DNA from: Candidatus Nitrospinota bacterium M3_3B_026
GTDB lineage: Bacteria > Nitrospinota_A > UBA7883 > JBPRGF01
Length of the DNA: 64,000 bases
Direction of reading: 5' to 3'
Assembly (NCBI GenBank): GCA_051418015.1
Contig: JBPRGF010000023.1
Coordinates: 172,127 to 236,126 of the forward strand
The translations under genes were made by a program, and so were the position numbers. Under the pieces are notes generated by a model, which ran no database searches, was not told where the DNA came from, and saw nothing but the letters and a program-made list of their open reading frames with translations. Positions 4,978 through 50,451 of the stretch are shown piece after piece; position 1 is the first letter of the stretch; each line of letters opens with the position of its first letter.

Positions 4978-5484
4978 GTGGCCCGGAGGCGCGCCCCCAG
5001 GTCCTGCATGGACCATGCCCTGGCCCTGCTCGCAAGAAGGCCCCACTCCGTCCGCGAGATCGAGAAAAAGCTCGGGGAGAAGGGGCACGGCCGGGAGGAG
5101 ATAGACGCGGCTGTCAAAAGGCTCCTTGGCCTCGGCTATCTCGACGACGAATCCGTCTGCCGGGACTATGCCTCCTCGCGCGTCCGCAGGGCCCGCGTCG
5201 GGCCGGCGCGGCTGAGGATGGACCTCGCCCGCAAGGGTTTCGAAAAAGGGCTGATCAAAAGGACGCTGGAGGAGGTCTACGGCGAAGAGGGGGCCGAGCT
5301 TGCCATAGCCCGCCGCGCGGCGGCGAGGAAGGCCCGGTCGCTGAAACAGGGTCTTGGCAGGGACGAGATGAAGATAAAAATTTTCGATCACCTGGCGCGC
5401 AGGGGTTTCAGGATGGAGACGGCGCGCAGGCTCGCCCTTGATGAGTTTGACGAGATCCTGAGGCGGGCGGAGGAGAACGGATGA
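4978..5484 (+). CDS. recX: recombination regulator RecX
   Basis: 168 aa directly downstream of recA. Has a RecX-like helical repeat sequence (ALALLARRPHSVREIEKKL). Confidence 0.8.
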   Translation: MARRRAPRSCMDHALALLARRPHSVREIEKKLGEKGHGREEIDAAVKRLLGLGYLDDESVCRDYASSRVRRARVGPARLRMDLARKGFEKGLIKRTLEEVYGEEGAELAIARRAAARKARSLKQGLGRDEMKIKIFDHLARRGFRMETARRLALDEFDEILRRAEENG

Positions 5485-6257
5485 GCGATCTTCCTTCGTG
5501 GTATCTCCATATCTCCGCCTTTATCCTCGGGGCCTGCGTGGGCAGCTTCCTGAACGTGGTGATATACCGCCTGCCCATGGGCAAGTCGCTCGTCCGCCCG
5601 GGGTCCGGCTGCCCGGAGTGCGGCTCGCCGGTCCGGGCGATGGACAACGTGCCCATACTAAGCTGGCTTGTCCTGATGGGGCTGTGCCGCGACTGCGGCG
5701 CGCCGATATCGGCGAGGTACATCCTCGTGGAGCTTCTGACCGGCGTCCTGACGCTGGCCGTTGTCGTCATCCACGGCGCGGGCCCGGAGGCGCTTTTCTA
5801 TCTAGTCCTGGCGTGGTGCCTGGTGGCCGTCACGTTCATCGACCTCGAGTTCCAGATCATCCCCGACGAGCTTAGCGTGGGCGGCGTGGCGGCGGGGTTG
5901 CTGGCTTCGTCCTTTCTTTCGATGGGGCTGAAAGGCGCCCTCCTCGGCGTTCTGGCAGGCGGTGGGATATTCTTCGCCCTGGCCATAGCCTACCCCGGCG
6001 GGATGGGCGGCGGCGATATAAAGCTCATGGCGGCGATCGGCGCGTTCCTGGGCTGGAAACTGGCCCTGCTCACCATCGTGACAGGCTCGGTCCTCGGCGC
6101 CGCCGCGGGGCTTTCGGCGATGGCCTTTTTCGGCAAGGGGAGAAAAAGCAGGATACCCTTCGGCCCGTTCCTGGCTGCGGGAGGGATCGTCTCCATCCTG
6201 TGGGGGGAGCGGATCATCGGGGCCTACCTCGCCGCCTTTGGCCCCGGCACGGGCTGA
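5481..6257 (+). CDS. pilD: type IV prepilin peptidase (A24 family)
   Basis: Has the N-terminal Cys box (CPECGSPV ... CRDCGAPI), polytopic membrane segments and a GGGDIKLMAAIGAFLG motif. Overlaps the recX stop. Confidence 0.85.
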   Translation: MSDLPSWYLHISAFILGACVGSFLNVVIYRLPMGKSLVRPGSGCPECGSPVRAMDNVPILSWLVLMGLCRDCGAPISARYILVELLTGVLTLAVVVIHGAGPEALFYLVLAWCLVAVTFIDLEFQIIPDELSVGGVAAGLLASSFLSMGLKGALLGVLAGGGIFFALAIAYPGGMGGGDIKLMAAIGAFLGWKLALLTIVTGSVLGAAAGLSAMAFFGKGRKSRIPFGPFLAAGGIVSILWGERIIGAYLAAFGPGTG

Positions 6258-6300
6258 CGGACGCCCGGCCCCGTTCGACCGCCCCTGTTGTCATTCTGAG

Positions 6301-6328
6301 GCGCAAGCCGAAGAATCCCGCCGTGCCT
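6301..6328. repeat. partial copy of the same repeat motif
   Basis: GTCATTCTGAGGCGCAAGCCGAAGAATC, between the convergent pilD and cobA-hemD genes. Confidence 0.4.
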
Positions 6329-6343
6329 GACGTGGACGCGGCT

Positions 6344-7882
6344 CTACCTCACCCCGGCGCCGAAATGGCGCTCGATGGCTCCCGCCAGTGCGGCCGTGGT
6401 GAAATCTTTCGGCTCGATCACGGGGTTCAATCCAAGCTTGCGGGCGGTCTCCGAGGTGATCGGCCCGATAGAGGCCACCGTCACGCCTTCCATCAGCCGC
6501 GCCGCCTCATCCTTGCCCCACATCTGGACGAAGTTCTGGACGGTGGAGGAGGAGGTGAACGTCACAACGTCTATCAGGCCCTCCTCGAACATTTTGCGGA
6601 CCTCTTCCTTGCGCTCTTCGGGTTTGATGGTGACGTAGGCCTCGGCGATGGTCACCTCCGCGCCAAGCTCGCCGAGTTTTTCCGGCAGGACCTCCCGGGC
6701 CACTTTCGCGCGGGGGATGAGTATCTTTTTACCCTTGAGGTCCTCGGCGCCCAGCCCTTCTATGATCGCCTCGGCGCGATATTCCGCCGGCAAAAGATCG
6801 ACCCGCACGCCGAGGCTCTCCACCGCCTCCGCGGTCTTCGGCCCGATGCCGCAGACTTTCAGTCCCTTAAGGTCTCGTATGTCCATGCCGCGCTCTTTCA
6901 GCCGCTCGACGAAGAACTTTACGCCGTTGACGGAGGTGAAGATTATCCAGTCATAATCCGCGAGTCTGTCAAGGGCGGCGTCGAGGCTGTCCCAGGACTC
7001 CGGCTTCACGGTCTCTATGGTGGGGAACTCTATGACGTCCGCGCCGCGCTCAGCCAGCATGGCGGCGAAATCCGAGGCCTGCTCGCGCGCCCTGGTCACC
7101 ACTATTTTCCTGCCGAACAATGGTTTTCGCTCGAACCAGTCGAGCTCCTCCTTGAGCTCCACCACGCCGCCGACGACGGTTATGGCGGGGGGTTTTATGT
7201 TCGCCTCCCTGACCTTGTCCACTATATCCGCCAGCGTCCCGGTGACGGTCTTCTGCTCCGGCGTCGTCCCCCAGCGGATGACCGCGGCGGGAGTCTCGGC
7301 CGGGCGGCCGTGTTTGATGAGGTTCTCCACGATGTTCGGCAGGTTCTTGATCCCCATGTAAAAGACGAGGGTGCCCATGCCCGTGGCGATCCTGTCCCAG
7401 TGTATGTTCGACTCTTTTTTCGTGGGGTCCTCGTGCCCTGTTACGAAGGCGACGGTGGCCGTGTGATCGCGATGCGTGAGGGGTATCCCCGCGTAGGCCG
7501 CGCCCGCCGCGCCCGCCGTGACGCCGGGGACGACCTCGTAGCGCAGCCCGGCCCTGACAAGCTCCTGGGCCTCCTCTCCGCCGCGTCCGAAGATGAAAGG
7601 ATCTCCCCCCTTGAGCCGGGCCACGACCTTGCCCGCCCCGCAGCGGTCCACTATGATCTGGTTTATCTCGTCCTGGGTCTTAGTGTGGCTGCCGCCCTGT
7701 TTGCCGACGTATAAAATCTCCGCGTCCGGCCGGGCGCTCTCCAGCAGCTTCGGGCTGGCCAGGTAGTCATACACGATGACATCGGCGCGCTCGATGATCT
7801 CTTTTCCCTTCACCGTTATGAGGCCCGGGTCCCCCGGCCCCGCTCCGATGAGATAGACGATTCCTTTGGACGTTTGGGGCAT
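6344..7882 (-). CDS. cobA-hemD: bifunctional uroporphyrinogen-III C-methyltransferase / uroporphyrinogen-III synthase
   Basis: 512 aa. N-terminal SUMT motifs are present (VYLIGAGPGDPGLITVKG, GGDPFIFGRGGEE). The C-terminal half is HemD-like. Confidence 0.9.
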   Translation of the reverse strand: MPQTSKGIVYLIGAGPGDPGLITVKGKEIIERADVIVYDYLASPKLLESARPDAEILYVGKQGGSHTKTQDEINQIIVDRCGAGKVVARLKGGDPFIFGRGGEEAQELVRAGLRYEVVPGVTAGAAGAAYAGIPLTHRDHTATVAFVTGHEDPTKKESNIHWDRIATGMGTLVFYMGIKNLPNIVENLIKHGRPAETPAAVIRWGTTPEQKTVTGTLADIVDKVREANIKPPAITVVGGVVELKEELDWFERKPLFGRKIVVTRAREQASDFAAMLAERGADVIEFPTIETVKPESWDSLDAALDRLADYDWIIFTSVNGVKFFVERLKERGMDIRDLKGLKVCGIGPKTAEAVESLGVRVDLLPAEYRAEAIIEGLGAEDLKGKKILIPRAKVAREVLPEKLGELGAEVTIAEAYVTIKPEERKEEVRKMFEEGLIDVVTFTSSSTVQNFVQMWGKDEAARLMEGVTVASIGPITSETARKLGLNPVIEPKDFTTAALAGAIERHFGAGVR

Positions 7883-7999: not shown

Positions 8000-8406
8000 T
8001 TTGAAGAGGCCGGCTGTAAGCCGGATCCTGTTCTCATCCCGCAGGATGAGCGACAGCCATTCATCTAGCCGCGCCGTTGCCGGCGCGGTCGAGCGGCCAA
8101 CCCGGAAGCTTTCGGGCGAGCAACCCTATACCCCTCGCGGGGGAACGCTTCCCTATTCGGCCTTGCGCCGGGTAGGGCTTGCCCTGCCGGCGATGTCACC
8201 ACCGCCGCGGTGAGCTCTTACCTCACCTTTTCACCCTTACTGCCGGAGGCCCGAAGGCCGCCGGTTAGCGGTATGTTTTCTGTGGCGCTTTCCCTGGGGT
8301 CGCCCCCGCTCCCCGTTAGGGAGTACCCTGCTCTGCGGCGTCCGGACTTTCCTCCCGCCGGCGATCCTGTGAAGGCGCCGGCCGGCGGCCGTCCACCGGC
8401 CTCTTC
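8000..8406 (-). ncRNA. rnpB: RNase P RNA, bacterial type A
   Basis: The reverse complement reads GAAGAGGCCGG...GGGAGGAAAGUCCGGAC...GGGUGAAAAGGUGAGGUAAGAGCUCACC...AGAUGAAUGGCUGUCGCUC...ACAGGAUCCGGCUUACAGCCGGCCUCUUC. These are the P1 pairing, the P4 GGAAAGUCCGG element and other universally conserved M1 RNA blocks. Confidence 0.9.
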
Positions 8407-9321: not shown

Positions 9322-10449
9322 TCAGGCCGTGGCGCCGATCCCCGTCCCGGCCCTGTTCTTGTAGTCGCCCAGCAGGTATTTCTGGTCGCGGGTGATGAGG
9401 GTTATGGCCACGCCGCTTTTGCCGACGCGGCCGGTGCGGCCTATGCGGTGGACGTAGGTGGTGGGGTCCTCCGGCAGGCGGTAGTTTATGACCGTGGCGA
9501 TGTTGTCCACGTGTATGCCGCGGGCGGCGACATCCGTGGCCACGAGGACTTTTGTCTCGCCCTCCTTGAACTTTTTCATCACCTTGTCGCGCCGGGCCTG
9601 CCGGAAGTCGCCGTGGATCGCCTCAACGGAGAAACCATAGCCCGCCAGGCGCTCGGCGACGCTGTCCACCTCCCGCTTGGTGCGGCAGAAGATGAGGGTC
9701 TGCCCCTGTCCTTCGCGCTCCAGGGCGTCTATGAGAGCCTCGATCCTTTCGGAAGGATGGACCATGTGGAATATCTCCTCTATCCTGCCCCTTTCGGCCA
9801 CGGTGTCCTTTATCCTTATTATCTTCGGGCTGACCATGTGGTTGAAGGCTATGGCCAGGACCCTGTCCTCCATCGTCGCCGAGAGAAGGAAGGTCTGCCG
9901 CTCCTCGGGCAGAAAGCGCATGATCGCCTCCACGTCCTCGATAAAGCCCATGTTGAGCATTTCGTCCGCCTCGTCCAGGACAGCGAACTCCACGTGATCC
10001 AGCGACAATATTCCCCGGTCATGCAGGTCCAGGACGCGGCCCGGCGTCCCCACCACTATGTGCGCGCCCTTGCGGAGCCTGCGCGCCTGGTCCTCGACGG
10101 GCCGCCCCCCGACCACGGCGACGATGCGGCTTTTTCTGAGCTCGCCCAGCCTGCGGGCCTCGTCCCGGATCTGCGTGGCCAGCTCGCGGGTGGGGGCCAG
10201 AACAAGCGCCCTGGGATACCGCGGCCGACGGTCTTTTATGTTGGCGAGTATGGGCAGGGCGAAGGCGGCGGTCTTGCCCGTGCCGGTCCTGGCCTGGCCG
10301 ATCACGTCGCGCCCCTCCAGGGCGGGCGGGATGAACATCGCCTGGATCGGGGTGGGGGTTGCGTAACCCATTTTGGCCAGGGCGCCGTCCAGCTCCCAGC
10401 CCAGTCTGAAGTCGGCGAAGCTTGCGCGACGCTTTGTTGTTTCTGTCAC
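9322..10449 (-). CDS. DEAD-box ATP-dependent RNA helicase
   Basis: Q-motif (PTPIQAMFIP), Walker A (ARTGTGKTAAF), DEAD box (VLDEADEM), SAT motif and HRIGRTGR motif are all present. Confidence 0.9.
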   Translation of the reverse strand: MTETTKRRASFADFRLGWELDGALAKMGYATPTPIQAMFIPPALEGRDVIGQARTGTGKTAAFALPILANIKDRRPRYPRALVLAPTRELATQIRDEARRLGELRKSRIVAVVGGRPVEDQARRLRKGAHIVVGTPGRVLDLHDRGILSLDHVEFAVLDEADEMLNMGFIEDVEAIMRFLPEERQTFLLSATMEDRVLAIAFNHMVSPKIIRIKDTVAERGRIEEIFHMVHPSERIEALIDALEREGQGQTLIFCRTKREVDSVAERLAGYGFSVEAIHGDFRQARRDKVMKKFKEGETKVLVATDVAARGIHVDNIATVINYRLPEDPTTYVHRIGRTGRVGKSGVAITLITRDQKYLLGDYKNRAGTGIGATA

Positions 10450-16468: not shown

Positions 16469-17512
16469 ATGTTCAAGACCGTGGAATGGAAAGGCGATAA
16501 AGTCCGGCTCATAGACCAGCGCAAGCTGCCGCTGGAGGAGACCTATATCGACCTCGAGACGAGCGGCGAGGCGGCGGCGGCGATAAAAGACATGGCCGTC
16601 CGCGGCGCCCCGGCCATCGGCGTCACCGCCGCCATGGGCGCGGCGCTGGCGGCGAAGTCGATAAACGCCCCGGACGCCGACGGCTTCATGGCCGAGTTCG
16701 AAAAAGCGCTCGAAACCCTCGCCGCGTCGCGCCCCACGGCGGTGAACCTTTTCTGGGCGGTGGAGAGGATGCGCGCGAGAGCGCTGGCGGAAAAACCGAA
16801 CGGCGTCGAGGCGGTCAAAACGGCGCTGGAGGAGGAGGCGCTGCGGATATACCGCGAGGACCTTGCCATAAACAGGACGATGGGGGAGAACGGCGCCGCG
16901 CTGCTGGACGACGGCGATACCGTCCTGACCCATTGCAACGCCGGGGCGCTGGCGACGGCGGGCGATTACGGCACGGCCCTCGGCGTGATAAAGGCCGCCC
17001 ACCTCGCCGGGAAGAATGTGAAAGTCTTCGCCGACGAGACGCGGCCCTGGCTGCAGGGGGCGAGGCTGACCACCTGGGAGCTGATGAAGGAGGGGATACC
17101 GGTGACCCTGATCTGCGACAACATGGCGGGGAGCCTCATGAAGCGCGGCATGATAAACAAGGTCGTGGTGGGCGCGGACAGGATCGCGGCGAACGGCGAC
17201 GCGGCGAACAAGATAGGGACGTACACCGCCGCCGTCCTGGCGGCGCGGCATGGAGTCCCTTTCTACGTGGCGGCCCCCATGTCCACCATCGATTTCGACA
17301 CGCCGGACGGGGATGGAATACCCATAGAGGAGCGCGACTCCTCGGAGATCACAAAAGTCATGGGCGGCCAGAGGATAGCCCCGGAAGGGGTGGACGTGTA
17401 CAATCCCGCCTTCGACGTGACGCCGAACGAGCTTATCACGGCGATAATCACGGAGAAGGGAGTGGCCAGGCCGCCTTTCACCGAGTCGCTGGAAAAACTG
17501 CGGCGAGGATGA
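16469..17512 (+). CDS. mtnA: S-methyl-5-thioribose-1-phosphate isomerase
   Basis: 347 aa of the eIF-2B/MtnA family ([24 protein letters not shown]). Confidence 0.8.
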
Positions 17513-17587
17513 ACGCAACCGCCAATACGCCGAGACGGCGTCCAACGGCCCCGTTTCGCGCCGGCGCGGCGCAACGTTGACGGCGCA

Positions 17588-17721
17588 GTCCTGAGGCGAA
17601 AGCCCTGATTCCCCTTTCCCGGACGGCAAAGGCAAGGTCCTTCACTTCGCTGACGCTTCGTTCAGGACGCCGGGTTGAAGCGAAGATGCCAGCTTTCTCG
17701 TCCTGAGCAACGCGAAGGGCC
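17588..17721. repeat. short inverted-repeat intergenic element (GTCCTGA...TCAGGAC) plus a partial extra copy
   Basis: GTCCTGAGGCGAAAG...CAAGGTCCTTCAC...CGTTCAGGACGCCGG, then CGTCCTGAGCAACGCGAAGGGCC. It is a homologue of the 49647..49739 element. Confidence 0.6.
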
Positions 17722-17762
17722 TTGGCTTTCAAACCGAAACACCCCGCCCCTTTCCTGTACAA

Positions 17763-20726
17763 TTGACAGGTAAAACGCAGGGCGGGAAGATGAGAAACGA
17801 CGCGCTGGAAAGAGCCACGGGCGAGATCGGCCGGGAGATATTCTCCCGGATGGAAAAAGAAAAGCCGCGTTTCTGGGAGACCTCCTGGTGGGAGCGGCGA
17901 GTCGTGGAATGGCTCACCTCGGACCCGGAAGTGAAAAGCCGCGTCCTGCGCTTCGTGGACGTCTACCCTTCGCTTAAAAGCGACAGGGCCGTCGCGCGCC
18001 ACATAAAGGAATACCTGCCTGACGCCGCCGCGCGCCTGCCGGAGGGGCTTCGCGTGGGCGGCGCCATAATGAAATCCGCCCTCCACGCGCCCGCCGCCGC
18101 CTCCGCTGCCACCAGGGCGGCCATGTCGAGGATGGCGAAAAAGTTCATCGCCGGCTCGAGCATGGAGGAGATGACGGAGCGGCTGGACATTCTGCTCGAG
18201 GCGGGGATGAGCTACACCGTGGACATCCTCGGCGAGGCGACGCTTTCCGACAGGGAGGCGGACTTCTACGCGGACAGCTACCTGAAGCTCATAACCTATC
18301 TGGCCGCGGGGCGCGCTCCGGGCGACCCGGCGGCGAGCGTCTCCCTGAAGCTTTCATCCCTCGCGCCGCGTTTCGACCCGGCCGCGCCGGAATACGCCAA
18401 GACCGAGGCGCTGCGCCGTCTCCGCCCCATATTGAAAGCCGCCGCAAAGACAGGATCCGGCGTCAACATAGACATGGAGAGTTTCGAGCTTCGCGATCTT
18501 GCGCTGGAAGTTTTCCGGGAAATTCTGAACGACAGCTCCCTTGACGGGTGGGACGGCCTTGGAACGGTGGCCCAGGCGTACCTGAAAGACTCTGAAGAGT
18601 CGCTCGACGGCCTTCTCGGCATGATACGAGACAGCGGCCGCCGCGCCGCCGTCCGGCTCGTCAAGGGCGCATACTGGGACATGGAGGCCGTCATCGCCAG
18701 CCAGAGGCGCTGGCCCCTCCCCACACGGGAGAGCAAGGCCGCCACGGACGCAGCCTTCGAGCGGATGACGCTCAAGCTGCTCGAAAACACCGATCACGTG
18801 ACCGCGGCGGTAGCCTCGCACAACGTCCGCTCCATAGCCCGCGCCGTCGCCGCGGCGCGATGGATGGGAGCGCCCGAGGGGCGGTTCGAGATACAGACCC
18901 TCTACGGCATGGCCGATCCCGTGAAAAAGGCGCTGGTGGAGATGGGCGTCCCCGTCCGGGTGTACGCCCCCTTCGGCGAGATGATCCCCGGCATGGCCTA
19001 CCTTGTAAGGAGGCTTCTCGAAAACTCCTCGAACGAGTCCTTCCTGCGCCGCTCCCTGCTGGAGGAGGCTTCGCCGGAGGAGCTTTTGAGAGATCCGGCG
19101 GAGACCCCGGAGCAAACGGCGGAAAAGGCCGAGGAGGAAAACGAGTCAAAAATATTCGTCAACGAGCCCGCGCCCATGTTCCATGAAAAAAGCTTCAGGG
19201 ACGCCCTTGATGAAACCGTGGAGAAGACCCGCGCCGGGCTGGGAAAGCGTTACCATCCCATCATAGACGGCGAAAGAATCGAAGCGAACGTCTCCTTTTC
19301 CTCCACGGATCCTTCCAATCCTTCCCGGATCGTGGGGATCATATCGAAAGCCGGGGCGGATCTTGCCGAAAGGGCGATGAACACGGCCCTGGCCGCTTTC
19401 GGCTCCTGGGCGGCGCTGCCTGCGGAGAGCCGCTCGGAAAAGCTATTCAAAGCCGCGGCGATCATGAGAGAGCGCAAGCTCGGACTCGCCGCGCTTCAGA
19501 TGTTCGAGGTCGGCAAGACCAGGCAGGAGGCCGTGGCGGACGTGGACGAGGCCATCGACCACGTGATGTTCAACGCGGCCCATGCTCCCGCCCTGTCCAA
19601 GCGGGAGAGGACAAATGACGTCCTGGGCGAGGTGAACACCCTGCGTCACCGTCCCCGCGGCCCGGGAGTGGTGATCGCGCCGTGGAACTTCCCGCTGGCC
19701 ATCCTGGCGGGGATGGCCAGCGCCGCGCTGGCCGCCGGGAACACGGTGGTGGTGAAACCGTCGTCGAACTCCGCGGCGCTGGCTGCTGTGTTCATGGATA
19801 TCCTGCTGGAGGCCGGGGTCAGCCCAGGCGCGGCGGGTTTTCTGCCCGGCCCCGGCCCGATACTCGGCAAGGCGCTGATCTCCCATCCGGCGACATCCTT
19901 CGTCATGTTCACCGGGTCGTGGGAGACGGGCTCGGCCATCGTGGAGGCGGCGGCGGTAAAAAGGGCAGGCAGGCGCGGCTTCATCAAGACCTTCGCAGAG
20001 ATGGGAGGTAAAAACGCCGTAATCGTGGACGGGTCGGCCGACCTGGACGAGGCCGTCGCGGGGGTTGTATCGTCCGCCTTCGGGTTCGGAGGGCAGAAAT
20101 GCTCCGCCTGCTCGAGGGTGATCGCGCTGAATGATGTGTACGGCGATTTCGTGGAAAGACTCGTCGCCGCCGCGGAGAGCCTCGTCGTAGGCCCCCCATC
20201 AGACCCCGCGTCCTTCTACGGGCCGCTGATCGACGAGGCGGCGGTGGAGAAAGCCGGAAAGTACATCAGGATGGGGGAGAAAGAGGCCACGCCCCTGCTG
20301 GTCCGCAAGGATGTTTTCGAGAAGGGGCGCTTTGTCCCCCCCGCCCTGTTCGGCGACGTGGACCCCGCTTCGAGCCTTGCCAGGGACGAAATATTCGGCC
20401 CCGTGCTCTCCGTCATGAGGGCGAAGGATATGAGCCGGGCGATAGAGATCGTCAACGGCTCCGATTACGCCCTTACAGCGGGCCTTTACTCGCGCACGCC
20501 TTCGAGCGTGGAGAAGCTCATGGAAGGAATAGAGGCGGGCAACGTCTACATCAACAGGGGGATCACCGGCGCCGTCGTGGGAAGACAGCCTTTCGGCGGT
20601 TTCAAGAAATCCGGCGCGGGCTCGGCTAAGGCCGGGTCGCTCGCTCTTTTAAAGGAGCTTTCCATCCCCGTGGCGGAGACGGAGAACATCGTCCGCCACG
20701 GCTTTTCGCCGGACATCGGGAGCTGA
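17763..20726 (+). CDS. putA: bifunctional proline dehydrogenase / L-glutamate gamma-semialdehyde (P5C) dehydrogenase, PutA-like
   Basis: 987 aa. N-terminal proline dehydrogenase barrel. C-terminal ALDH domain with catalytic Cys context (FGFGGQKCSACSR) and EMGGKN. Confidence 0.8.
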   Translation: MTGKTQGGKMRNDALERATGEIGREIFSRMEKEKPRFWETSWWERRVVEWLTSDPEVKSRVLRFVDVYPSLKSDRAVARHIKEYLPDAAARLPEGLRVGGAIMKSALHAPAAASAATRAAMSRMAKKFIAGSSMEEMTERLDILLEAGMSYTVDILGEATLSDREADFYADSYLKLITYLAAGRAPGDPAASVSLKLSSLAPRFDPAAPEYAKTEALRRLRPILKAAAKTGSGVNIDMESFELRDLALEVFREILNDSSLDGWDGLGTVAQAYLKDSEESLDGLLGMIRDSGRRAAVRLVKGAYWDMEAVIASQRRWPLPTRESKAATDAAFERMTLKLLENTDHVTAAVASHNVRSIARAVAAARWMGAPEGRFEIQTLYGMADPVKKALVEMGVPVRVYAPFGEMIPGMAYLVRRLLENSSNESFLRRSLLEEASPEELLRDPAETPEQTAEKAEEENESKIFVNEPAPMFHEKSFRDALDETVEKTRAGLGKRYHPIIDGERIEANVSFSSTDPSNPSRIVGIISKAGADLAERAMNTALAAFGSWAALPAESRSEKLFKAAAIMRERKLGLAALQMFEVGKTRQEAVADVDEAIDHVMFNAAHAPALSKRERTNDVLGEVNTLRHRPRGPGVVIAPWNFPLAILAGMASAALAAGNTVVVKPSSNSAALAAVFMDILLEAGVSPGAAGFLPGPGPILGKALISHPATSFVMFTGSWETGSAIVEAAAVKRAGRRGFIKTFAEMGGKNAVIVDGSADLDEAVAGVVSSAFGFGGQKCSACSRVIALNDVYGDFVERLVAAAESLVVGPPSDPASFYGPLIDEAAVEKAGKYIRMGEKEATPLLVRKDVFEKGRFVPPALFGDVDPASSLARDEIFGPVLSVMRAKDMSRAIEIVNGSDYALTAGLYSRTPSSVEKLMEGIEAGNVYINRGITGAVVGRQPFGGFKKSGAGSAKAGSLALLKELSIPVAETENIVRHGFSPDIGS

Positions 20727-20749
20727 CCCCCATCCTTCGGAGAGGACGC

Positions 20750-48488: not shown

Positions 48489-49592
48489 ATGAGCACGATC
48501 CTTATCGTGGACGACAACGAGGACAGCATTGTCCTTTACGAGTCCATCATCTCGTCGCGCGGCTACAGGGTCATCACCGCCGGCGACGGCGAGGAAGCCC
48601 TGGAGAAGCTTAAAGCCGCCGAAGGGGGCGTGGACCTCGTCCTCTCCGACATCATGATGCCGAAAATAGACGGGCTGGGCCTTGCCAGGAGGATAAAGAG
48701 CGACCCCGACGCGCGCCACATCCCGGTGATCCTGCTCACCGCCGGGAAACGTGAGCGCGAGGACATGGCGGGCGGACTGGACGTCGGCGCGGACGACTAT
48801 CTCGTAAAGCCCGTGGACACCGTGGAGCTGATGGCGAGGCTGCGCTCACACCTGAGGGTGAAAAAGCTCCAGGACGAGCTGACGCTGGCGAACCGCCGCC
48901 TGGCGGAGATGAACGACAACCTGGAGCAGTTGGTCGAGGAGCGGACGGTCGAGATCATGCTGACCAGGAACGCGGCCATATTCGGCCTCGCCAAGATCGC
49001 CGAGCGCCGCGACCCGGAGACCGGCGGGCATCTTGAGAGGATACGCGAATACACCAGGGCGCTGGCCATCCAGATGCGGAAGGCGCCGCGTTTCAGGGAC
49101 GTGATCGACGACGACTTCATCGTCAATATCTACCAGTCCAGCCCCCTGCACGACGTGGGCAAGGTGGGCATCCCGGACAGCATATTGCTCAAGCCCGGCA
49201 AGCTGACGCCCGAGGAGTTCGAGATCATGAAAACCCATTCAACGATCGGCGGGGACTCCCTCGCGGCGGCGGAGCGCTCCTTCGCGGGTGACAGCTTTCT
49301 TTCCATGGGAAGAGACATCGCCTACTACCACCATGAACGGTGGAACGGGAAGGGATACCCGAAAGGTTTGGAGGGGGATGAAATCCCTCTCGCCGCCCGG
49401 ATAATGGCCCTGGCCGACGTCTACGACGCCCTGGTCAGCAAACGGGTCTACAAGGAGGCCATGTCCCACGAAGAGGCCAGGAAAATCATCCTGGGCGAAG
49501 AGGGGGAGCATTTCGACCCGGACATCGTGGCGGCTTTCCGGGAGATAGACCAGTTGTTCCTGGAGACAAGAAGAAAACACTCGGACGAGTGA
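48489..49592 (+). CDS. response regulator with HD-GYP phosphodiesterase domain (RpfG-like)
   Basis: REC domain (VDDNED...DLVLSDIMMP...DYLVKP). HD motif HDVGKVGIP. GYP motif WNGKGYPKGL. Confidence 0.85.
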   Translation: MSTILIVDDNEDSIVLYESIISSRGYRVITAGDGEEALEKLKAAEGGVDLVLSDIMMPKIDGLGLARRIKSDPDARHIPVILLTAGKREREDMAGGLDVGADDYLVKPVDTVELMARLRSHLRVKKLQDELTLANRRLAEMNDNLEQLVEERTVEIMLTRNAAIFGLAKIAERRDPETGGHLERIREYTRALAIQMRKAPRFRDVIDDDFIVNIYQSSPLHDVGKVGIPDSILLKPGKLTPEEFEIMKTHSTIGGDSLAAAERSFAGDSFLSMGRDIAYYHHERWNGKGYPKGLEGDEIPLAARIMALADVYDALVSKRVYKEAMSHEEARKIILGEEGEHFDPDIVAAFREIDQLFLETRRKHSDE

Positions 49593-49646
49593 ACGGAGGG
49601 TAAAAAGAAGACCTTTGCCTAACCTGGATGCTCCGGTGTTTTGAAG

Positions 49647-49739
49647 TCCTGAGCCGCAAGGCGAAGGATCTTGCCTTTGCCGTCCCATGATGAAATCAAG
49701 GTCCTTCACGTCACGGCGAAGACTCCGCTCGTTCAGGAC
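49647..49739. repeat. short inverted-repeat intergenic element (GTCCTGA...TCAGGAC)
   Basis: GTCCTGAGCCGCAAGGCGAAGG...CAAGGTCCTTCACGTCACGGCGAAG...CGTTCAGGAC. Lies between the convergent HD-GYP and CheY genes. Spurious + strand ORFs are called over it. Confidence 0.6.
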
Positions 49740-49787
49740 GGCGGCAACGGGCGGCAAGGCCGGTTGCGAAGGTATCGGAAAAGGCCC

Positions 49788-50174
49788 TCAAGCCCCCTGT
49801 CCCGGCTCCGGGGTCAGGACCTCCGCCACCGCCTCCAGCATCTCCTGCTGGTTGATCGGCTTCCTGAACACCTTTGCCGCTCCCAGGATGCTGGCCATCC
49901 TGAGCATGTCGGACATGTCATCCTTCGAGCCGCCGGAAATGACGATTATTTTGACGCCGGGGAAATCCTTCCGCAGCTTCTCCAGGACCTCTATCCCGCT
50001 CCTGCCGGGCATCATGACGTCGGTGACGATAAGGTCGGGCTTGTTCTCCTTGAAAAGACGCATCCCCTCCCCGCCGTCGGCGGCCTCCACCACGTTGTGC
50101 CCCCTCGGCTCAAGAAGATAGCGCAACGTCATGCGCATCAACTCGTCGTCGTCTATTACCAGTATGTCAGCCAT
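49788..50174 (-). CDS. single-domain CheY-like response regulator
   Basis: The true start is MADILVIDDDELM at 50174. DLIVTDVMMP and a conserved K are present. The ORF call to 50255 is a spurious extension. Confidence 0.75.
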   Translation of the reverse strand: MADILVIDDDELMRMTLRYLLEPRGHNVVEAADGGEGMRLFKENKPDLIVTDVMMPGRSGIEVLEKLRKDFPGVKIIVISGGSKDDMSDMLRMASILGAAKVFRKPINQQEMLEAVAEVLTPEPGQGA

Positions 50175-50451
50175 TACAGACCCCTGACAGATCAGGCGGA
50201 CGCGCGAAAAAACCTGGCCGCCCCCACTCGTTGAAAGCCTCAGCTTCGGCCGCAAGTTTACACAGATTCTACACCATGCCCGGTGTTTTTGACATTATAA
50301 CTTATCCATACAGCTTTCGAGCAGAAAAAACAAAGACTCCTCCCGCAGAACCCCGCGAGAGGTAAAATGATTTTTTACTATCCCCGGCGCCTCCGCGCGA
50401 TTGAGCGCGCTATTGATGAAATCTTTATAACCTGTTATTATTAATGGAATT

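Follow-up and report, generated by a model that had tools for sequence, protein, structure and literature searches.

Short intergenic hairpins, very probably REP-type repeats, in a Candidatus Nitrospinota genome and their relatives in other bacterial phyla

Six short hairpin units, 5 of them clear and 1 decayed, are located at three intergenic sites of a 64,000-nucleotide (nt) stretch of the genome of Candidatus Nitrospinota bacterium M3_3B_026 (contig JBPRGF010000023.1, positions 172,127 to 236,126), here called the window. The units are 25-45 nt long. The initial annotation of the window had described elements of 80-95 bp with 7-bp terminal inverted repeats, and two stretches do have the ends GTCCTGA...TCAGGAC: element A at 17588-17668 (81 nt), where it had been placed, and element B at 49646-49739 (94 nt), which begins at 49646 and not at 49647. 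CGTTCAGGACG forms the terminus of both elements, and CAAGGTCCTTCAC occurs exactly, once in each, at 17633 and 49697. A further GTCCTGA copy, annotated at 17699, begins at 17700, and GTCATTCTGAGGCGCAAGCCGAAGAATC is at 6290-6317, 11 nt away from the 6301-6328 first given. The block GCGAAGG, which had been listed as conserved, occurs in element B and the copy at 17700 but is absent inside 17588-17668. The inverted ends exist, but the basic repeat is the hairpin unit, and elements A and B are inverted doublets of it (doublets A and B).

The units were scored with R1, a covariance model based on an alignment of 34 units (A3). Units u3 and u4 were included in the training of R1; u2 and u5 were not. 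The six units are:

u1, 17588-17625, plus strand, start 17588: decayed unit, left half of doublet A, reading GTCCT-GA-GGC-GAAA-GCC.
u2, 17627-17674, minus strand, start 17668: long type with a three-tier hairpin, right half of doublet A; R1 34.7 bits, E 1.8e-8.
u3, 17694-17730, plus strand, start 17700: short type, reading cuc-GTCCT-GA-GC-AAC-GC-GA-AGGGC-CTTGGCTTTC; R1 42.8 bits (in the model).
u4, 49640-49679, plus strand, start 49646: short type, left half of doublet B, reading GTCCT-GA-GCC-GCAA-GGC-GA-AGGAT-CTTGCCTTTG; R1 45.1 bits (in the model).
u5, 49691-49745, minus strand, start 49739: long type with a 19-nt insert, right half of doublet B, reading GTCCTGAACG...CGTGAAGGACCTTGATTTCA; R1 29.3 bits, E 1e-6.
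u6, 6287-6326, plus strand, start 6293: single unit, predicted hairpin of the ATTCT/AGAAT variant, reading uGUC-ATTCT-GA-GGC-GCAA-GCC-GA-AGAAT-CCC; R1 40.7 bits.

The genes on either side were determined from an open reading frame (ORF) map based on G+C content at third codon positions (GC3), from Pfam, and from gene calls on matching contigs:

Site of u1-u3: between mtnA (16469-17512, plus strand) and putA (start about 17790, plus strand), co-directional.
Site of u4-u5: between a response regulator with HD-GYP (48489-49592, plus strand) and a CheY-like receiver (49788-50255, minus strand), convergent.
Site of u6: between a prepilin peptidase gene (5481-6257, plus strand) and cysG/hemD (6344-7882, minus strand), convergent.

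All three sites are intergenic and 2 of the 3 are between convergent genes, much as the annotation had it, but the 17.6-kb site is co-directional. Unit u6 is positioned 35 nt past the stop of the prepilin peptidase gene and 27 nt before the stop of the convergent cysG/hemD gene.

The unit scheme is GTCCT-GA-(inner stem + GNRA/GAA loop)-GA-AGGAY-CTTGCCTTT. An outer stem of 5 bp (GTCCT/AGGAY, with ATCCT or ATTCT in other copies) is broken by a 5'-GA/5'-GA purine step; an inner stem of 2-4 bp follows, capped by a GAA or GNRA-like loop, and the tail 3' of the hairpin is CTTGCSTTT. The loops of the window units are GCAA, GAAA or AAC, and GTCCTGAGCCGCAAGGCGAAGGAT is a hairpin sequence containing the G·A purine steps. 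A longer, three-tier form has a second purine-rich internal loop; the long-type units of the window, u2 and u5, carry additional sequence between the GA steps. The form stem5-GA-stem-loop-stem-GA-stem5 was found in u3, u4, and u6. Unit u1 is preserved from the 5' arm through the GA step to the GNRA-capped inner stem; its 3' arm is gone (CTGATTC instead of GAAGGAY), R1 does not match it at E<=10, and it pairs with u2 in folds. Most copies outside the window carry a 5' tag of tgtc, cgtc, or ggtc. Within the window TGTC was found only in u6, and the other units have cgca, cggc, tctc, tgaa, and cgcc. A K-turn was considered for the GA/GAA loop and rejected by inspection, as the GA/GA step is symmetric and there is no 3-nt bulge followed by G·A pairs.

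The inner stems covary inside the window (GCC/GGC versus GGC/GCC). In A3, 5 of the 8 stem pairs had changes on both sides, and the covariation score was 0.378 compared to 0.176 ± 0.020 for shuffled alignments. When copies were picked by outer sequence alone, the inner stem still paired in most tagged members, with GC/GC, GG/CC, AC/GT, AT/AT, AT/GT, GT/AC, and TG/CA as inner-stem types. The test of tag against inner-stem pairing was marginal (p = 0.048), as the control group contains genuine members whose tags have decayed. Unprompted, RNAalifold folded twelve long-type units into the three-tier hairpin (((((..((...((....))...))..))))), with 4 of 9 pairs compensatory and with internal loops of 2x2 (GA/GA) and 3x3 (purine-rich). 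The sequence of u2, GTCCT-GA-AC-GAA-GC-GUCA-GC-GAA-GU-GA-AGGAC-CTTGCCTTT, fits this consensus. The hairpin of u4 was also recovered by a structural scan.

The best mutual match between elements A and B is in opposite orientation (30 nt, 87%), which was the first sign that each element is composed of two inverted halves. All doublets found have a plus unit followed by a minus unit with the tags outside. In other genomes, this arrangement occurred with a 6-10 nt gap in at least 15 loci, for a total of 90-105 bp, and the doublets often paired one short with one long partner. Given that layout in elements A and B, each 7-bp "terminal inverted repeat" is the 5' arm of one of two inverted units. Units u2 and u3 form a second inverted pair, with tags inside and a 31-nt spacer, and are paired with each other in the fold of 17585-17730; the 17.6-kb site is therefore a three-unit alternating cluster rather than an element plus a fragment. 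Overall, the units were observed singly, as inverted doublets of 80-105 bp with 5' tags outside, and in small alternating clusters. The flanks of the two minus-strand units are also alike (49740-49787 and 17669-17699; CCGGTTGCGAAGGTATC and CCGGGTTGAAGCGAAGATGCC). Both resemble the 3' half of a unit and, from their sequence, may be decayed further copies.

We then considered the family beyond these sites. The composite pattern GTCCTGA-N(5-30)-GAAGGRYCTTG had 4 matches in the window compared to 0.00 expected (100 shuffles). With filters off, R1 recovered exactly five units in the window at 29-45 bits (E 1e-6 to 8e-12), and the next match scored 11 bits. A scan of GTDB, at one genome per species, with the pattern GTCCTGA-N(5-30)-GAAGGRYCTTGNNTTY matched at least 112 stretches; among the matches listed, roughly 40% were clear relatives by eye, and the remainder were chance or coding matches. 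A typical relative reads tgtcGTCCTGAGCGAAGCGAAGGAYCTTGCGTTT. Stem variants ATCCT and ATTCT were present at the same loci, although the pattern had not selected for them, and a T-rich tail (CTTGCGTTTT) was observed in many genomes. Applied to the genome loci that were fetched, R1 gave at least 89 matches at E<0.01 and at least 17 more at E<=0.1. A BLAST search of plasmids identified a doublet in Hymenobacter (ATGCT/AGCAT stem) and a unit in Nostoc, and R1 had 3 matches in these two plasmid loci. According to record titles, the hosts belong to at least ten phyla and include Acidobacteriota, Nitrospirota, Nitrospinota, Elusimicrobiota, Synergistota, Bacillota, Bdellovibrionota, Pseudomonadota, Balneolales, Bacteroidota, and Cyanobacteriota. 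Among the matches listed, Nitrospirae HyVt-426 accounted for 8-9 loci and one metagenome-assembled genome (MAG) of Acidobacteriaceae for 7. An Acidobacteriaceae MAG has a copy with 93% identity to u2 over 41 nt, a closer match than u2 has with any other window unit. A scan of viral contigs with the first pattern returned 94 matches, all of them chance or coding. A scan of metagenome contigs with the 23-nt tail of the window's subfamily returned one match, which was coding and had no element. That match, an exact GGACGGCAAAGGCAAGATCCTTC on JGI (Joint Genome Institute) contig Ga0155276_164 (L219, 93-115), is within a coding region (...HVDGKGKILRV...) in which R1 finds no unit; from its translation, the region is apparently a riboflavin-synthase-like gene.

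With crude ORF calls at the fetched loci, 15 clusters were between co-directional genes, 7 between convergent genes, and 3 between divergent genes. By-eye counting on the same crude calls put single units in the orientation of the upstream gene in about 10 of 12 cases. The flanking genes were ordinary and mutually unrelated, with no constant gene association. Those next to dense clusters or between doublets were housekeeping genes (an aminotransferase, RNase III, an ankyrin protein, CdsA, and a thiamine pyrophosphate (TPP) enzyme).

Two other repeat arrangements were observed in the course of these searches. A MAG of Aminivibrio sp. (Synergistota; L113, 559-1747) has approximately 15 units in 1.2 kb, nearly all in one orientation and irregularly spaced. 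The cluster has two alternating subtypes (inner GCGNCAGC and GGAGCGAAGCGAG), adjoins an aminotransferase gene, and is neither a clustered regularly interspaced short palindromic repeat (CRISPR) array nor the usual doublet layout. Five loci from Chloroflexota/Dehalococcoidia MAGs (L109, L119, L137, L141, and L148) carry a different repeat with the common frame GTCCTGAGC...GAAGG. This repeat, gttcGTCCTGAGCCNNGTCGAAGGRCCTTGGMTTCGGCG...GGTTCGACGGGGCTCACCA, has a longer hairpin and its own inverted partner, and on sequence it looks like a sister family.

Comparison of the window to its relatives identified two segments that differ in presence:

17572-20730: segment without a counterpart in L208, a relative with 91% MtnA identity; the repeat cluster occupies its left edge, with putA over the remainder.
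About 49609/49621 to 49806: segment absent in L212 and L213, relatives with 92% protein identity.

In L208, mtnA is followed by an EPSP-synthase gene after 78 nt (compared stretch 9927-9990). The G+C content of 17572-20730 is the same as that of its surroundings. In L212 and L213, only 21 nt separate the two regulator genes. The second segment consists of doublet B, flanked on the left by 27-37 nt and on the right by about 67 nt, and it provides the last codons and the stop of the CheY-like receiver gene on the minus strand. The C-terminus of the receiver (49788-49806) reads ...EVLTPEPGQGA* in the window and ...EVLAPEGNA* in the relative (L212, 11126-11140). In relatives at 76-83% protein identity, the elements were absent at the corresponding gene ends, and R1 found no copies in the compared relatives' contigs (about 33 kb for the 91-92% relative). 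At the 6.3-kb locus, the closest relative (83% identity) has a different neighbouring gene.

The initial annotation had called the elements REP-like, that is, like repetitive extragenic palindromic (REP) sequences, and this part of it is borne out. The units are short imperfect extragenic palindromes, they form inverted doublets and clusters, they belong to a large multi-genome family, they are mostly behind genes, and the segments that carry them are polymorphic at two loci. We consider it very likely that the elements are REP-type repeats, resembling REP sequences, bacterial interspersed mosaic elements (BIMEs), or REPINs, and that they form a multi-phylum family. The mobilisation and the RNA-level roles outlined below are possible rather than probable, by analogy to known REPs. 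Taken together, a multi-phylum REP-type family with such mobilisation and RNA-level roles is the statement that we favor, with some reserve. The elements are an ordinary kind of genomic repeat, but the family is poorly described, and a literature search by sequence string found no searchable paper that quotes its sequences.

One known group is the GTAG-tagged REPs of E. coli and Pseudomonas (the REP/BIME/REPIN-RAYT systems, RAYT being the REP-associated tyrosine transposase), which are mobilised by TnpA-REP, a Y1 HUH enzyme. The present elements resemble them in being short imperfect extragenic palindromes with inverted doublets, alternating clusters, variable copy sets, and no target-site duplication. 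The short and long doublet partners are comparable to the Y and Z REPs of E. coli BIMEs. In contrast, there is no GTAG foot, the sequence is kept across phyla and not merely within a genus, and a crude regular-expression search found no RAYT gene in the window or the fetched loci.

The elements are close to the CGTC-tagged REP superfamily, which includes dRS3 of Neisseria and RPE-4 and RPE-6 of Rickettsia (Di Nocera et al. 2013, BMC Genomics 14:522; PMC3733652). That paper describes a CGTC or TGTC tag (with a CCTC variant), a stem of 8-9 bp starting with AT, a loop of 4-5 nt, and a tail of 3 unpaired nt with the consensus CCA. Dimers are mostly with tags outside ("HH"), and the repeats are located behind ORFs, in co-directional and convergent gaps, in several phyla. 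By these described features, the present family is alike in its tag (u6 and most copies outside the window), its tags-outside dimers, its location behind ORFs, its multi-phylum spread, the AT-starting stems of the ATCCT and ATTCT variants, the short loops of 3-5 nt, and the lack of an adjacent transposase gene. It differs from that description in that one or two purine-purine steps (GA/GA, RRA/RRA) interrupt the stem, and there is a three-tier long form. Most window units start with GTCCT and have lost the tag; in place of CCA, GTCCT and ATCCT units have a CTT(G) tail and u6 has CCC. Nitrospinota, Acidobacteriota, Nitrospirota, and other hosts found here are absent from the host list of the paper. 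With the GA/GA step included in the stem, ATCCTGAG-CGAAG-CGAAGGAT comes to 8 + 5, and the long forms exceed 8-9 bp. On sequence, the best fit is that the family belongs with or beside the CGTC-tagged REPs.

An alphaproteobacterial repeat, CGTC-ATTGC-GAGCGAAGCGAAG-CAAT-CCA (CGTCATTGCGAGCGAAGCGAAGCAATCCA), has the 13-nt core GAGCGAAGCGAAG in common with the present family. The sequence CGTCATTG(C/T)GAGCGAAGCGAAGCAATCCA was found in at least 40 places on pSA1 of Novosphingobium resinovorum (L218; NZ_CP017076.1, a 1.76-Mb replicon), and CGTCATTGCGAGCGAAGCGAAGCAATCCA also occurs in N. aromaticivorans. Four CGTC families are described in PMC3733652, in which the genus Novosphingobium and N. aromaticivorans are given for CGTC-2. 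R1 scored the Novosphingobium-type repeat at 15.9 bits only; as judged from its sequence, this repeat is a sister family rather than the same family.

REP-like hairpins also flank the TnpA-Y1 genes of class 3 and subclass 2.6 (Quentin et al. 2018, BMC Genomics 19:475; PMC6006769, Table S1). Examples are CCGC-GA-CC-GTAA-GG-GA-GCGG in Legionella and Solibacter and CACGCTCT-GA-GG-TCCT-CC-GA-AGGGCGTG in Planctomyces limnophilus, and such REPs can reach high copy number, about 600 in Solibacter usitatus. Their design (stem, GA, 2-bp stem, GNRA loop or tetraloop, 2-bp stem, GA, stem) is identical to that of the present units. Their stem sequences and feet (CnGA or GTGG) are different. By this analogy, these hairpins are the best available lead to a candidate enzyme for the present family.

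The copies would be non-autonomous and would be gained or lost by way of very stable hairpins in single-stranded DNA. The likeliest route would be a tyrosine HUH enzyme (IS200-like, RAYT/TnpA-Y1), encoded elsewhere, that cuts and rejoins single-stranded DNA. Such cutting and rejoining has been shown for the REPs of E. coli. Units behind a gene would be transcribed into its 3' untranslated region, where the stem-loops could shield the mRNA from 3' exonucleases or dampen read-through. Both effects have been described for enterobacterial REPs. A bolder proposal is that these repeats are an undescribed, horizontally spreading REP family of at least 10 phyla, defined by a 13-nt purine-rich core (GAGC-GAA-GCGAAG and covarying versions), one or two tandem G·A steps, and short-plus-long doublets, with a mobilising enzyme that is the missing partner of the "orphan" CGTC-type REPs. 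We regard this proposal as doubtful.

Several observations weigh against the favored reading. The window copies have diverged from one another (87% over 30 nt at best) and thus give no sign of a recent burst, copy number was seen in 64 kb of the source genome only, and the TGTC/CGTC tag is degenerate in 5 of the 6 window units. The rows of A3 behind the covariation counts were pre-selected for perfect pairing, and the folding z-scores were modest (-0.4 to -2.6). As for the polymorphism that the annotation had suggested looking for, two loci do differ from relatives at 91-92% identity, but neither segment is a clean insertion of an element. One is 186-198 nt around the 94-nt doublet and the other is 3.16 kb and includes putA, so the change may have been a gain or a loss. 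Deletion or recombination could account for both segments as well as insertion. A crude regular-expression search of the window and of about 0.9 Mb of fetched loci found no HUH/Y1 enzyme, though it would miss a single-copy gene elsewhere in the genome. The CGTC-type REPs themselves are without a known transposase, and none adjoins their copies, according to PMC3733652.

An alternative scenario is that the hairpins are terminators or 3'-end stabilising stem-loops maintained by selection at each gene end, immobile and alike by shared function. Copies follow genes and seldom fall between divergent ones, most single units share the orientation of the upstream gene, many genomes have the T-rich tail, and one weak terminator-like site is directly before element B. 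However, no site from the stem-plus-T-run scans of the window coincided with any of the six model-defined hairpins. Near element B, the scans picked out 49703-49722, which falls within the long u5 insert, and two short hairpins that are not part of the elements. In a relative with 91-92% protein identity the repeat sites are empty, dense clusters occur away from gene ends (L113), and the 93% identity of a 41-nt unit between Nitrospinota and Acidobacteriaceae is not predicted by shared function alone. We consider this alternative unlikely. The role of bidirectional terminator that had been proposed does not hold in the classical sense, as none of the units combines a G+C-rich stem with a T run directly after it. 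The elements are not classical terminators.

A miniature inverted-repeat transposable element (MITE), also proposed in the annotation, would be a deletion derivative of an insertion sequence, with a DDE transposase recognising the 7-bp GTCCTGA/TCAGGAC ends. The length of the elements (81-94 bp), their perfect 7-bp inverted ends, and the presence or absence of the carrier DNA between close relatives are as expected of a MITE. Yet no direct repeats flank element A or B, so there is no target-site duplication, and no related transposase was found among the neighbouring genes. Half-elements occur alone at 6293, at 17700, and in many other genomes; each "terminal repeat" is a hairpin 5' arm whose partner arm is 15-35 nt away in the same half; and the polymorphic segments do not stop at the element ends. 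A MITE is accordingly an explanation to which we give little credence. Integron attC sites were also examined and rejected by inspection (ends GTCCTGA/TCAGGAC; GTTCAGG misfits GTTRRRY).

The third possibility raised was a structured RNA. If dedicated, it would be a small RNA gene or else a cis-regulatory element for the neighbouring genes. The helices covary, and doublet B folded as RNA gives a three-way junction at -38 kcal/mol (z = -2.6), at the favorable end of the modest scores noted above. Rfam 15, however, had RNase P as its sole match in the window at gathering score, and the elements together with an Acidobacteria doublet gave nothing meaningful even at E<=10. The neighbouring genes are unrelated (mtnA/putA, a two-component pair, prepilin peptidase with cysG, and others), the units occur in both orientations and are absent at orthologous sites, and scans found no promoter-like site beside elements A and B. 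A dedicated RNA gene finds no support here, and a structured RNA of either kind is very improbable. Lastly, chance similarity among G+C-rich intergenic sequences could draw on the 22 occurrences of GTCCTGA alone in the window, mostly within genes, and on the weak enrichment of a generic stem5-GA-stem-loop-stem-GA-stem5 scan (7 matches compared to 4.1 expected, nonspecific alone), but it is refuted by the composite-pattern count, by R1 E-values down to 8e-12 in the window, and by the unit's recurrence at more than 100 sites of other genomes, where its flanks are conserved although the search had not called for them.

If these elements are REP-type repeats, the family brings new hosts and a purine-step hairpin design to the REP world, and it touches the question raised in 2013 of whether an enzyme moves CGTC-type REPs and, if so, which one. 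Under the bolder proposal above, comparing filled with empty sites among these Nitrospinota populations could help to work out target and mechanism. For annotators, a model of the unit would allow the repeats to be masked in Nitrospinota, Acidobacteriota, and many MAGs. Repeats of this kind can rewrite gene ends, as with the last codons and stop of the response-regulator gene that are supplied by a repeat-bearing segment. They also seed spurious ORFs. The two that the annotation had pointed out, 49671-50234 and 49687-50121, do exist as mechanical ORFs, start in element B, and are antisense shadows of the minus-strand response-regulator gene at 49788-50255.

The RNase P RNA matched by Rfam is of bacterial class A and is located at 8001-8404 of the window on the minus strand, a full-length match of 296 bits.

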